In this document: positions 3,001-6,000 of the stretch, one piece after another | How positions within the stretch are numbered: position 1 is the stretch's first letter | How the letters are laid out: each line of letters opens with the position of its first letter | Assembly (NCBI RefSeq): GCF_013315695.1 | Contig: NZ_CP054353.1 | Reading direction: 5' to 3' (one strand) | DNA: 64,000 nt | From: Escherichia coli | GTDB taxonomy: Bacteria; Pseudomonadota; Gammaproteobacteria; Enterobacterales; Enterobacteriaceae | Made by a program: the position numbers

Positions 3001-6000
3001 TCTGGCGTGTGGTATTGTTATGCGCAGGTCTAGGATGCTGGCTTTGTCCGCTCATTCGTCGCCGTGAACCTCACGTTGCCGGACTTGTTCTGGGGTTAAT
3101 CCTCATTCTTGGCGGTGAAATGATCGGGCGTGTGCTCTTTTATGGCCTGCACATGACGGTAGGAATGGCTATTGCAGGTTAACAAATTGGTGCGGGGCAA
3201 CCCGCACATTTCAGGATGTTAGGAATGACCCATTTTTCACAGCAAGATAATTTTTCTGTTGCGGCGCGCGTGTTGGGCGCGCTGTTTTATTACGCTCCAG
3301 AGAGTGCGGAAGCCGCCCCCCTGGTTGCGGCACTCACCCGTGACGGCTGGGAAACTCAGTGGCCTCTACCAGAAGAGTCATTAGCGCCGCTGGTGACTGC
3401 TTTTCAGACACAGAGTGAAGAGACTCACGCCCAGGCTTGGCAGCGTTTGTTTGTCGGCCCGTGGGCACTGCCGTCACCGCCGTGGGGATCGGTCTGGCTG
3501 GATCGCGAATCTGTGCTGTTTGGCGATTCAACATTGGCACTTCGTCAGTGGATGCGCGAGAAAGGCATTCAGTTTGAAATGCAGCAAAACGAACCGGAAG
3601 ATCATTTTGGTTCACTGCTGTTGATGGCTGCGTGGTTGGCGGAGAATGGTCGCCAGACAGAATGCGAAGAATTGCTGGCATGGCACCTTTTTCCGTGGTC
3701 AACACGTTTTCTTGACGTTTTTATCGAAAAAGCAGAACACCCTTTCTACTGTGCACTGGGTGAACTGGCTCGCTTAACGCTGGCGCAATGGCAATCACAA
3801 CTGTTGATTCCTGTCGCGGTTAAACCACTCTTTCGATAGGATCACCGTAATATTGCCGGATGGTGACGATTACGCGCGATTCGGCAATAATACGTTACAG
3901 TGTCACGTTTTTTTATCTCTTAAAGCACGCACTGCTTTTGCGGCTGGCCTCTTTTGCCGCAAAATAGTCGCCCGTGTTTCATTGCCCATTTCTGCTCATG
4001 CATCATCTACACATCTATCCGGATCTGCGCACTATGTTCCGCCGTCTGCTTATCGCAACAGTCGTCGGTATTCTTGCGGCCTTTGCCGTTGCCGGGTTTC
4101 GTCATGCAATGCTGCTACTGGAGTGGTTGTTCCTCAATAATGACTCCGGCAGTCTGGTCAATGCAGCGACAAATCTTTCCCCATGGCGACGGTTGCTAAC
4201 TCCGGCGCTCGGCGGACTGGCGGCGGGTTTGTTGCTGATGGGCTGGCAGAAATTTACCCAGCAACGCCCTCATGCGCCGACCGATTACATGGAAGCGTTG
4301 CAAACCGATGGTCAGTTCGATTACGCAGCAAGCCTGGTTAAATCGCTTGCCTCTCTGCTGGTAGTAACCAGCGGCAGTGCAATTGGTCGCGAAGGTGCGA
4401 TGATTCTTTTAGCTGCCCTTGCCGCCTCCTGTTTTGCCCAACGTTTTACGCCACGCCAGGAGTGGAAATTATGGATCGCCTGTGGAGCTGCGGCGGGAAT
4501 GGCTGCGGCCTATCGAGCCCCGCTTGCTGGCAGTTTATTTATAGCCGAAGTGCTGTTTGGCACTATGATGTTGGCCTCTCTCGGCCCGGTGATTATTTCC
4601 GCCGTCGTGGCGTTGCTGGTTAGCAATCTGATTAATCATAGCGACGCGTTACTCTACAGCGTACAACTCTCAGTGACGGTTCAGGCTCGTGACTATGCGC
4701 TGATTATCAGTACAGGTGTGCTGGCAGGTCTGTGCGGACCACTGTTGTTAACGTTAATGAACGCCTGTCATCGTGGATTTGTAAGTCTCAAACTTGCGCC
4801 GCCCTGGCAACTGGCACTGGGCGGGTTGATCGTGGGTCTGCTTTCCCTGTTCACACCTGCAGTGTGGGGCAACGGCTATAGCACCGTACAATCCTTTTTA
4901 ACCGCCCCGCCACTGTTAATGATCATTGCCGGGATCTTCCTCTGTAAACTGTTTGCCGTGCTGGCGAGTAGTGGTTCTGGCGCGCCCGGTGGTGTCTTTA
5001 CACCGACGCTATTTATCGGTCTTGCCATTGGCATGTTGTATGGTCGTAGCCTGGGATTATGGTTCCCTGATGGCGAAGAAATTACGCTTTTACTCGGATT
5101 GACCGGGATGGCGACACTATTGGCGGCAACCACGCACGCGCCGATTATGTCGACGTTGATGATATGTGAAATGACCGGGGAGTATCAGCTACTCCCCGGT
5201 TTATTGATTGCCTGCGTAATTGCGTCGGTAATTTCGCGGACGTTACACCGTGACTCTATCTACCGCCAGCACACTGCGAAGCATAGCTAAGCGGATGTAT
5301 TGCCCCAGTTCACGCTGTTCGGCGCGCGGCAGATAAGGCAGTTCACCAATGAGCGGTGCCGGAAGTTTTTTACCGAGCACATCAATGATTTCCGCATAAT
5401 GCGCAAGTCCTGGGTTGATTCGGTTAGCCACCCAGCCAATGAGCGGCAGCCCGTCGTTGGCAATCGCCTGAGCTGTTAGCAGTGCATGGTTAATGCAACC
5501 TTCCTGAATACCGACAACCATCAACACCGGCAGTTGTTCCTGCACCACCCATTCAGAGAGCGGACGCAAATCATTCATCAGACTGCGCCAGCCGCCAGTC
5601 CCTTCTACCACGACATGATCGACTTTATCGGTCAGGTTTGCCAGGCCGTTTGAAATGAGGGTGTAATTGATTGGGCAACTGTGCGCCACGCTACTTTCTT
5701 CTTCGCTTAACGCGATAGGATTAACTGCTTCATAAGGCAGTTCGATGGTTGAAACACTCTGCAACACCAGGGCATCTTTATTACGCAGCCCTTCGGGTGT
5801 CTCTTTGCTCCCCTTCGCTACGGGTTTATATCCCGCAACCGTTTTTCCCTGGGAGGCTAACGCTTGTAGCAATGCGCGGGAAACCACCGTTTTCCCTACA
5901 GAAGTGTCTGTACCGGTAATAAAGAAACGCTTCAGCATCACTAACTCCACCGTTATGCTTCACAAATATAAACCAGGAAAATAATTAACCTTGAAAGTCT

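Follow-up and report, generated by a model that had tools for sequence, protein, structure and literature searches.

The 3′ ends of clcB and ynfK, two convergent genes in a 64,000-nucleotide stretch of Escherichia coli DNA (the window), share a segment of sequence, which raises the questions of whether both strands are truly coding there and where the two transcripts end. A first-pass annotation had claimed a convergent overlap of 48 bp at positions 5243–5290 and had left open that one C-terminus might be misannotated. The overlap is borne out by the ends of the two open reading frames (ORFs), and it is independent of the choice of start codon in either gene: the possible starts of clcB are ATG 4034 (the K-12 start, 418 aa), ATG 3998 (the PGAP start, 430 aa) and GTG 3974 (the longest ORF), and those of ynfK are ATG 5938 (231 aa) and GTG 5950. 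An identical 48-bp overlap is found in K-12 MG1655 (clcB 1665315–1666571, plus strand; bidA 1666524–1667219, minus strand) and in the RefSeq/PGAP annotation (clcB 1599–2891, plus strand; 'bioD' 2844–3539, minus strand; numbering of locus L001). The overlap is already known and annotated in both sources, and no correction is needed; a literature search for the clcB/ynfK overlap itself and for 'BidA' returned nothing specific. The window matches E. coli strain MS 21-1 with 100% identity, and among 5426 complete genomes of the species the region is present in 5415.

Pfam matches, homologs in the PDB and orthologs in 80 species loci mark each of the two ORFs as a genuine, conserved protein-coding gene. 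The clcB product matches Pfam Voltage_CLC (5.7e-81), and its residues 5–402 align to ClcA structures. The ynfK product matches Pfam AAA_26 (2e-30)/CbiA, and its residues 1–220 align to E. coli BioD structures (5e-65). The features of the locus are collected in Table 1.

Table 1. Features of the clcB/ynfK locus, in positions of the window.
Feature	Position	Strand	Remarks
clcB CDS	4034..5290	+	ORF; 418 aa from the K-12 start
ynfK CDS (= bidA; 'bioD' in PGAP)	5243..5938	-	ORF; 231 aa; BioD paralog
Dual-coding overlap	5243..5290	both	48 bp, 16 codons per gene with stops included
Overlap core	5243..5269	both	27 bp; common to every species having both genes
ynfK stop TAA (TTA on plus strand)	5243..5245	-	other strand: ClcB Leu404 (TTA)
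clcB stop TAA	5288..5290	+	other strand: YnfK Leu217 (rare codon TTA)
YnfK-specific C-terminal tail	5246..5278	-	residues 221–231; past the end of the BioD fold
Equivalent of Rho-region peak, K-12 1666514	5233	-	Adams et al. 2021, PMC7815308
GC-rich stem-loop	5173..5201	-	42 nt past the ynfK stop; proposed 3′-end/terminator hairpin of ynfK
Possible rut region	5093..5172	- (ynfK-sense)	downstream of the hairpin; mild C>G, a weak indication

The two reading frames overlap in a codon-aligned antisense register, with codon position 1 opposite position 3 and position 2 opposite position 2, and the shared segment holds ClcB residues 404–418 and YnfK residues 217–231, each followed by the stop codon. 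With codon-aligned frames, one gene can have a stop only where its partner has TTA, CTA or TCA. These codons make up 3.0% of ynfK and 4.3% of clcB, and the probability of meeting no stop in 15 codons is about 0.5–0.6. Because TTA, CTA and TCA are rare in both genes, the length of the overlap alone is statistically unremarkable. Judged from the sequence comparison, it is the conservation of the overlap, rather than its length, that exceeds chance: of the 65 species loci in which the clcB 3′ end is intact, every one has it.

The comparison set consisted of 80 Enterobacteriaceae species loci, including these 65, and contained 13 species without clcB; 109 further loci were not kept in it. YnfK is 231 residues long, with its stop at the identical position, in all 80 loci. 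The ClcB stop shifts within 13 codons between lineages and always lies inside ynfK (65/65 loci); the overlap accordingly measures 27, 39, 45, 48 or 66 bp (3, 1, 15, 35 and 11 loci, respectively) and is never absent. The core encodes ClcB L-H/R-x-D-S-I-Y-R-Q opposite YnfK L-x-V-D-R-x-x-A/V and its stop. This YnfK tail motif is kept in 80 of 80 loci, the 13 clcB-less species included; Leu224, Val226, Asp227 and Arg228 are conserved also in the absence of clcB. ClcB is conserved through the segment ending in RTLRxDSIYRQH, beyond which its last ~7 residues are poorly conserved. A poorly conserved tail had been named in the first-pass annotation as a sign that one ORF might end earlier; it was found only in these ~7 ClcB residues, and the shifts of the stop never abolish the overlap.

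The clcB-less species serve as a control for the effect of each gene on the other. Within the core, the entropy of ynfK third codon positions is 0.49 with clcB and 1.45 without it (same columns), and for the last nine codons (223–231) the values are 0.46 and 1.47; in the rest of the gene the two groups are similar (1.19 with clcB, 1.07 without). All 65 clcB-bearing loci end ynfK with TAA or TAG and none with TGA, whereas TGA serves as the stop in 9 of the 16 loci where clcB is not intact; these nine are among the 13 without any clcB. Conversely, every clcB stop among the 65 loci lies opposite a YnfK leucine encoded by TTA or CTA or a serine encoded by TCA (L224, L220, S218, L217 or L211), and Leu217 is kept as the rare codon TTA in the 34 loci where it forms the clcB stop. 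A reciprocal coding constraint is thus apparent at otherwise synonymous sites, in wobble entropy, stop choice and the Leu217 codon.

The overlap is therefore a genuine and ancient tail-to-tail dual-coding segment and not an annotation error. That one protein really ends earlier, with no true coding overlap, is highly improbable: the poorly conserved ClcB end with its moving stop (27–66 bp overlaps) and a YnfK tail that is the most variable part of the protein and is predicted with low confidence would fit that explanation, but there is no earlier in-frame stop, the stop positions are a property of the sequence and not of a start-codon call, even the shortest ClcB variants overlap ynfK by 27 bp, the invariant YnfK length and conserved tail residues do not depend on clcB, constraint on the ynfK wobble sites is confined to loci with clcB, and the K-12 and PGAP annotations are concordant.

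The first-pass annotation had also concluded that the 3′ ends of the two transcripts are necessarily antisense to each other. This is correct and even understated, as ynfK has no intergenic space at all, and the only conserved 3′ hairpin available to it lies inside clcB, where a Rho region has been reported. In the data of Adams et al. 2021 (PMC7815308, supplementary file 2), a region of Rho termination with its peak at K-12 position 1666514 is classified as 'primary' for ynfK and 'antisense' to clcB. Reads upstream and downstream of this position number 85 and 11 in untreated cells and 292 and 159 with BCM, giving a Rho score of 4.2 (p 1.5e-6) at a coarse resolution with 800-nt scoring windows (PMC7815308). 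The reported coordinate lies upstream of the hairpin. In the curated aerobic data sets (Adams 2021), neither ynfK nor clcB has a Term-seq 3′ end.

The hairpin lies within the clcB CDS, 42–70 nt past the ynfK stop and outside the segment covered by the first-pass annotation, and its conservation is the new result at this locus. It was found by a terminator scan, which flagged it on the plus strand and did not call it on the minus strand. The core stem pairs positions 5175–5182 with 5192–5199 (CCGGGGAG/CTCCCCGG), and the codons involved encode ClcB Thr-Gly-Glu-Tyr-Gln-Leu-Leu-Pro-Gly. With a fold energy of -21.5 kcal/mol (z -4.8 on the minus strand and -4.5 on the plus strand), it is the most stable conserved local structure within positions 5000–5940. 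The stem-loop is conserved in all genera, with a mean energy of -17.5 kcal/mol over 64 species against a background of -7 ± 2.4 kcal/mol. Its positions are paired in 91.4% of alignment cells, compared to 21–51% with the partners slid, the cells being phylogenetically non-independent counts, and its covariation score was reached by none of 500 shuffles. The covariation joins Glu GAG to Leu CTC in 22 loci and Gln CAG to Leu CTG in 23 loci; this compensatory swap may reflect just one or two evolutionary events. The hairpin contains invariant rare codons. Its codons Thr ACC and Pro CCC do not vary in any of the 65 loci and are the only two of 21 nearby four-fold degenerate codons with a frozen wobble position. 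Part of the conservation stems from the conserved CLC motif itself.

Further searches delimit this element. An Rfam scan of positions 4900–5600 gave only sub-threshold chance matches (e.g. sraA at 24.5 bits, where the gathering score is 56), and no repeat of the hairpin was found within the window. No conserved structure comparable to it was found downstream of the clcB stop. A hairpin at 5415–5490 in ynfK was considered as a clcB terminator and rejected, as its z is only -0.5/-0.3 and the ynfK wobble sites there show no clcB-dependent constraint.

On the ynfK-sense strand, the stem is followed by UCAUUUCACAUAUCA, which contains only UUU; the stem lacks a U-rich tract behind it as well as an A tract ahead of it, and a canonical intrinsic terminator (stem plus U tract) is not present on this strand in E. 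coli. The U tract is missing because the bases concerned encode conserved ClcB residues. Beyond the hairpin, the raw C/G ratio reaches 1.26 in the first 80 nt and 1.40 in the first 120 nt (range 1.26–1.57 over 80–160 nt), a mild excess that hints weakly at a rut region. Dar & Sorek 2018 (PMC6061677) described Rho-dependent 3′ ends that lie just past stable, U-poor stem-loops and are followed by sequence with C>G, and found such ends also inside the coding regions of downstream genes.

The best joint explanation, which we regard as probable, is a dual-coding overlap together with a hairpin that acts as a Rho-assisted 3′-end element of ynfK. Because no intergenic DNA remains, the ynfK transcription unit would end inside clcB, with the stem-loop as the 3′-end element of its mRNA. 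Termination would depend on Rho, since a U tract is absent after the hairpin, and the hairpin itself probably marks and protects the mature ynfK 3′ end. Transcripts of clcB presumably continue into ynfK and may end diffusely, by Rho or by collisions between polymerases.

Because the hairpin is a DNA palindrome, its assignment to one strand rests on the asymmetry of G·U pairs, which is mixed. The core stem favors ynfK-sense RNA, being paired in 98.5% of cells compared to 93.9% as clcB-sense RNA; outer and loop-proximal pairs favor clcB-sense RNA. The asymmetry hints weakly at the ynfK transcript. Genomes that have lost clcB are also informative. Three partial deletions (loci L011, L023 and L052) retain only the last 60–110 clcB codons, hairpin included. 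Among clcB-less genomes, Trabulsiella and Lelliottia retain a Gln-type stem directly past the ynfK stop, and C. amalonaticus retains a Glu-type stem and has gained a T7–8 tract, which makes it a canonical terminator. In these genomes the hairpin sits between ynfK and a convergent ABC-ATPase gene, which its retention could also serve.

Two other roles for the hairpin were weighed against a function at the ynfK 3′ end, and each appears quite unlikely. The hairpin might be a bidirectional, Rho-independent terminator of the collision type (Ju et al. 2019; Wang et al. 2022, bioRxiv 10.1101/2022.10.23.513370). Such terminators are described as common in E. coli, and the locus resembles them in being a convergent pair, with both units induced under the same condition and a single strong, non-canonical stem-loop without a U tract near the gene boundary, possibly positioning the polymerases. 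However, the class is described as Rho-independent and intergenic, whereas the ynfK 3′ end is sensitive to BCM according to the literature and on the clcB side the stem-loop is part of a translated ORF and should be opened by ribosomes.

Alternatively, and with about the same small chance of being correct, the hairpin could serve clcB or the DNA and not ynfK: it might act within clcB as an intrinsic attenuator or a site of pausing, influence mRNA stability, or form a palindrome to which a protein binds. The terminator scan flags the plus strand, with the hairpin followed by the T-rich TTTATTGATT, but this tail is not conserved (Enterobacter has CCTGCTGGT). Pairing over the whole hairpin is slightly higher on the plus strand (91.5% vs 86.3%), and the outer and loop-proximal pairs are better kept there as G·U; against this, single-sided variants in the core stem are nearly all of the type tolerated on ynfK-sense RNA (23 vs 2). 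Moreover, transcripts ending at, or decaying to, a hairpin 87 nt before the clcB stop would be non-stop mRNAs, and the lineage-matched stem is retained in genomes that deleted the rest of clcB.

The arrangement also invites a regulatory interpretation. According to the literature, FNR directly activates ynfK and likewise the ynfEFGH-dmsD operon upstream of clcB. The transcripts of ynfK and clcB are complementary over 48 nt or more, and an end of ynfK at the hairpin would raise this to 118 nt; transcriptional or antisense interference between the two genes is possible. In its strongest form, which seems unlikely, the locus would be a hard-wired anaerobic switch, with FNR-driven ynfK reading at least 118 nt antisense into clcB and the hairpin in the clcB ORF shortening or destabilizing clcB transcripts by blocking polymerases or making them collide. 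Induction of dethiobiotin synthetase in anaerobiosis would then be mechanically coupled to a lower level of the ClcB Cl-/H+ antiporter, and the synonymous choice of Leu and Ser codons in ynfK would tune the length of the ClcB C-terminus.

More broadly, an FNR-induced ynfK antisense RNA or head-on polymerases might lower clcB expression, or the reverse, in the manner of mscL/arfA. This reading is unlikely. It would agree with the direct FNR activation on both sides, with ynfK transcripts that reach antisense into clcB, more so when Rho is inhibited, with the conservation of the arrangement over many genera, and with the mscL/arfA precedent. On the other hand, the literature search returned nothing on clcB-ynfK regulation, ClcB and YnfK have no known functional link, and the conservation is explained by coding constraint and by the lack of a selective route to separate the genes. 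In addition, ynfK does not appear to need clcB as a partner, because gene and tail are kept unaltered in the 13 species that lack clcB.

Under the preferred interpretation of a dual-coding overlap with a Rho-assisted ynfK 3′ end, the locus can be compared to several known systems. Among gene orientations, only the convergent one allows real overlaps of great length, and most of these were reported as conserved only among very close species (PMC2478687). Like the convergent overlaps of Rogozin et al. 2002 and Palleja et al. 2008 (PMC2478687), the clcB/ynfK pair consists of two well-characterized genes with overlapping 3′ ends, which likely arose by drift of a stop codon into the neighbor. It differs from them in being kept over at least 20 Enterobacteriaceae genera, in its codon-aligned register ('phase 0') and in showing a directly measurable reciprocal constraint on stop choice and wobble sites.

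The ynfK 3′ end shares with those of Dar & Sorek 2018 (PMC6061677) a stable stem-loop soon after the stop, the lack of U/A tracts, perhaps a mild downstream C>G and, from the literature, a BCM-sensitive read-through. Here, however, the hairpin is known from sequence, it is built from the T-G-E/Q-Y-x-L-L-P-G motif of the convergent CLC gene, and coding and pairing appear to co-evolve in it (Glu/Gln with Leu CTC/CTG). The mscL/arfA pair (Morra et al. 2023, PMC10070815) is likewise tail-to-tail, with the 3′ region of one mRNA complementary to the 3′ CDS of the partner. There, the mscL 3′ UTR overlaps the arfA CDS, and regulation by asRNA and RNase III has been demonstrated (PMC10070815); in clcB/ynfK both partners are coding in the overlap, and any such regulation is conjectural.

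The clcB/ynfK pair offers a family-wide natural experiment on dual coding, in which the clcB-less species reveal which ynfK wobble sites, together with the stop codon, are held by the partner gene. It also suggests that a conserved functional motif of one gene can harbor the terminator or 3′-end hairpin of its convergent neighbor, and that an amino-acid change (Glu/Gln) can be offset by a synonymous change on the opposite arm of the stem. The practical value of the case is modest but concrete. Recoding, deletion (Keio-type) or codon optimization of clcB would unknowingly remove or alter the last 15 codons and the 3′ end of ynfK, and the reverse also applies. In addition, the locus would allow Rho-assisted termination within a convergent ORF to be tested specifically and at low cost in anaerobiosis.

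Judged from alignments to structures and domain families, the overlap encodes peripheral tails of both proteins. In ClcB, the alignments to ClcA and Pfam extend to about residue 402, and the last 15 ClcB codons are a cytoplasmic tail after the CLC domain. BioD chains stop at YnfK residue 220, so the last 15 YnfK codons comprise four residues of the BioD-like fold and an 11-residue YnfK-specific tail. In the AF2 model, the mean pLDDT is 51 for residues 221–230 and below 50 for residues 227–231, values that neither support nor exclude a structural role for this most variable part of YnfK. A protein homology search gave only YnfK orthologs at 86% identity or more and was uninformative on the origin of the tail. 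One YnfK with 65% identity, in a ynfL-mlc-ynfK synteny, occurs without clcB, and its tail is different but of similar length.

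The 3' ends of clcB and ynfK overlap by 48 bp, as the first-pass annotation had proposed; the ORF list and the raw sequence agree on both stops, and the same overlap is annotated by PGAP and in K-12 MG1655 (clcB 1665315–1666571; bidA, now the name for ynfK, 1666524–1667219). The first-pass reading thus holds, and public records already carry it. Real convergent gene overlaps are a described class (Palleja et al. 2008, PMC2478687), and this one is conserved unusually widely. A literature search turned up nothing published about this overlap or about a hairpin at that site. The overlap length of 48 bp is a multiple of three, so the codons of the two genes are in register, with position 1 facing position 3 of the partner gene and the middle positions opposite each other. 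The choice of ClcB start (418 vs 430 aa) leaves the 3' overlap unaffected. The window is 100% identical to E. coli strain MS 21-1, the clcB/ynfK region is found in 5415 of 5426 complete E. coli genomes, and 3842 records match the 141 bp surrounding the overlap with at least 99% identity.

Features of the convergent clcB and ynfK 3' ends
Feature	Position	Strand	Context	Source
clcB stop TAA	5288–5290	+		ORF list and raw sequence
ynfK stop TAA (TTA on + strand)	5243–5245	−		ORF list and raw sequence
clcB/ynfK shared stretch, 48 bp	5243–5290	both		raw sequence
Hairpin, 12-bp stem	5173–5201		ClcB codons Thr-Gly-Glu-Tyr-Gln-Leu-Leu-Pro-Gly, 42 nt past ynfK stop	terminator scan

The start of clcB differs between records, at ATG 4034 (418 aa, K-12) or ATG 3998 (430 aa, PGAP, MS 21-1); the longest ORF begins at GTG 3974 (438 aa), placing the 5' end in question within 3974–4034. 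The gene at 5243–5938, bidA (formerly ynfK) in K-12, is named 'bioD' (dethiobiotin synthase) by PGAP in twenty RefSeq records (H1–H20), which leaves genomes with two genes called bioD and can mislead automated comparisons.

The explanation that we consider probable is a genuine and ancient dual-coding overlap of two peripheral protein tails, with a ynfK 3'-end hairpin embedded among clcB codons and termination of ynfK assisted by Rho. The length of the overlap alone is unsurprising. A stop can arise in either gene only where its partner has TTA, CTA or TCA, which account for 3.0% of codons in ynfK and 4.3% in clcB, so that an antisense run of 15 codons without a stop has a probability of ~0.5–0.6. 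Its conservation, unlike its length, is surprising against chance. A survey of one genome per species yielded 80 Enterobacteriaceae loci, and the genes overlap in all 65 with an intact clcB 3' end. Opposite every clcB stop, YnfK has a Leu encoded by TTA or CTA, or a Ser encoded by TCA: Leu217 for overlaps of 48 bp (35 loci), Ser218 for 45 bp (15), Leu211 for 66 bp (11), Leu224 for 27 bp (3) and Leu220 for 39 bp (1). Which synonymous codons ynfK uses thus determines how long the ClcB C-terminus is; Leu217 is kept as the rare codon TTA in 34 of the 65 loci.

With no intergenic DNA available, ynfK must terminate within clcB. The hairpin found there has a folding energy of −21.5 to −21.7 kcal/mol (z −4.8 for the − strand, −4.5 for the + strand). 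Across 64 species, no other conserved local structure within 5000–5940 comes close to it in stability: its mean energy is −17.5, compared with −7 ± 2.4 for the background. Over 57 distinct aligned sequences, pairing holds in 91.4% of cells, compared to 21–51% with slid partners; double changes occur at two pairs, and none of 500 shuffles reaches the covariation score. In the main compensatory change, an amino-acid substitution is accompanied by a synonymous one: in 22 loci (Escherichia, Salmonella, Citrobacter, Buttiauxella) Glu GAG is matched with Leu CTC, and in 23 (Klebsiella, Enterobacter, Kluyvera, others) Gln CAG with Leu CTG. Two stem codons, Thr ACC and Pro CCC, never vary among the 65 loci; of the 21 four-fold-degenerate codons of 5093–5242, they alone have a frozen wobble position, the rest having entropies of 1.0–1.9. 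No Rfam family matches the hairpin, and it occurs only once in the window. Its one notable feature is the co-evolution of coding sequence with RNA pairing inside a conserved CLC motif.

Published data place a Rho termination region at K-12 position 1666514 on the − strand, classed as 'primary' with respect to ynfK and as 'antisense' with respect to clcB, with upstream/downstream reads of 85/11 untreated and 292/159 with the Rho inhibitor bicyclomycin (Rho score 4.2, p 1.5e-6; Adams et al. 2021, PMC7815308, supplementary file 2). This position corresponds to 5233 in the window, 10 nt past the ynfK stop, though the method scores stretches of 800 nt and so resolves positions coarsely. The curated aerobic Term-seq tables of the same study contain no 3' end for ynfK or clcB. 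Rho-dependent transcripts end precisely just past stable, U-poor stem-loops, some within downstream coding regions, and a mild C>G bias follows such ends (Dar & Sorek 2018, PMC6061677). The ynfK hairpin fits this class in the sequence after the stem, where the transcript reads UCAUUUCACA, fixed by the ClcB codons Cys-Glu-Met-Thr. The downstream C/G ratio is a mild 1.26–1.57. The embedded hairpin is probably a new example of this known class of Rho-dependent 3'-end stem-loops.

FNR directly activates both ynfK and ynfEFGH-dmsD, the latter upstream of clcB (Myers et al. 2013, PMC3688515), so both converging units are induced anaerobically. Antisense or interference regulation, by analogy with mscL/arfA, would be plausible and compatible with a dual-coding overlap bearing a ynfK hairpin, and is rated as unlikely. 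Genomic SELEX of YnfL/HusR gave a weak peak inside ynfK, between clcB and mlc (coordinate 1,664,668; intensity 72, no HusR box; PMC12844172, Table 1). No conserved terminator was found for clcB, the sole other candidate, 5415–5490, having a z of −0.5, and clcB transcripts presumably end diffusely within ynfK. The SELEX peak would lie near 5337, ~47 nt past the clcB stop, on our assumption that the older MG1655 numbering applies.

The fate of the hairpin after loss of clcB is the best discriminator of its owner. In Trabulsiella and Lelliottia, the flanking coding sequence is gone on both sides and CCGGGCAG-N9-CTGCCCGG, the Gln-type stem of their relatives, persists 8–12 nt after the ynfK stop, with the flanking CATTTCAC also kept in one case. 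Citrobacter amalonaticus without clcB keeps the Glu-type stem CCGGGGAG/CTCCCCGG followed by T7–8, a canonical intrinsic terminator. Three loci (L011, L023, L052) have most of clcB deleted and retain its last 60–110 codons with the hairpin, adjoining dmsD; in two clcB-less loci (L040, L041), unrelated canonical terminators occupy the same place. Among single-sided variants of the core 8-bp stem, 23 stay G.U on the ynfK-sense RNA versus 2 on the clcB-sense RNA; the outer and loop-proximal pairs show the opposite asymmetry, so this test is weakly supportive of ynfK. The T-rich tail past the hairpin on the clcB-sense strand is unconserved. Most likely, the hairpin belongs to ynfK. That it serves clcB or acts on DNA is unlikely given the stem retained after clcB loss, and a collision-type bidirectional terminator is equally doubtful in view of the Rho sensitivity at the ynfK 3' end.

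Both overlapping segments are tails. Alignment to E. coli BioD structures covers YnfK residues 1–220, leaving 221–231 as a YnfK-specific tail that is not confidently modelled by AlphaFold2 (mean pLDDT 51 for residues 221–230; 92 overall). Its length and the motif Leu224, Val226, Asp227 and Arg228 are kept in all genera, also in 13 species without downstream clcB, including Kosakonia, Pseudescherichia vulneris, Trabulsiella, Lelliottia, Intestinirhabdus and some C. amalonaticus. A 65%-identical YnfK with conserved ynfL-mlc-ynfK synteny and no clcB has a tail of similar length and different sequence, so a C-terminal extension probably predates the overlap. In ClcB, the match to ClcA structures extends to residue 402 (E. 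coli ClcA) or 411 (Salmonella ClcA, chain 1kpl), and the Pfam CLC model stops at the equivalent of residue 402; the overlap (ClcB 404–418) is therefore a tail beyond the membrane domain. As to the C-terminal conservation that the first-pass annotation had suggested checking, YnfK has 231 aa and an identical stop position in 80/80 loci, and ClcB is conserved through ...RTLRxDSIYRQH, whereas its last ~7 residues vary and its stop shifts.

The 65 loci with clcB and 13 without provide a natural control for dual coding. In the 27-bp core (5243–5269), the column entropy of ynfK third positions is 0.49 with clcB and 1.45 without, whereas the adjoining ynfK-only region is alike in both groups (1.19 vs 1.07); codons 223–231 are the only block gene-wide with such a difference (0.46 vs 1.47). 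All 65 clcB-bearing loci end ynfK with TAA or TAG, because this stop is read as ClcB Leu404, and 9 of the 13 lacking clcB end it with TGA. Misannotation of one C-terminus, the alternative raised at first pass, is contradicted by the conservation seen in both tails and by this constraint on ynfK wobble sites and stops, and is highly improbable.

An earlier in-frame ClcB stop (...DSIYR* or ...SIYH*) occurs in E. coli strain E69 (L004, CP089930.1; near locus position 3649–3696) and in L060 and L065 (Superficieibacter), which costs ClcB 7 residues and leaves an overlap of 27 bp, showing that in nature ClcB can dispense with its last residues. Rare singleton YnfK variants of 216–224 aa in E. coli/Shigella sonnei protein sets (P0005, P0007, P0008, P0033, P0079) are missing some or all of the tail, perhaps through frameshift or nonsense mutations.

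In L057, an ABC-transporter ATPase gene with a C-terminal CBS region (OpuC/YehX-like; 3747–4970, − strand) is convergent with ynfK, and it is also present in other clcB-less Enterobacteriaceae (L010, L017, L033, L040, L073). In L083, which has a distant ynfK ortholog, a gene with these same two domains, ABC-transporter and CBS, is found ~2 kb further downstream of that ortholog, raising the question of ancestral synteny. Enterobacter sp. kpr-6 (L073) carries a long G/C-rich palindrome, CCCTCTCCCTCAGGGAGAGGGGG, at 3697–3760 directly after the ynfK stop; it is unlike the clcB-derived hairpin and could be a terminator element of another kind, mobile or REP-like. The record titled Chryseobacterium sp. 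18061 (L037, CACSKA010000003.1) has a typical Enterobacteriaceae mlc-ynfK-clcB locus that misfits its title, with a tail region nearly identical to that of 'Citrobacter sp. 18056' (L078), and the tail and hairpin of a MAG titled uncultured Raoultella sp. (L014) match Citrobacter braakii; both assemblies are probably mislabelled or contaminated.
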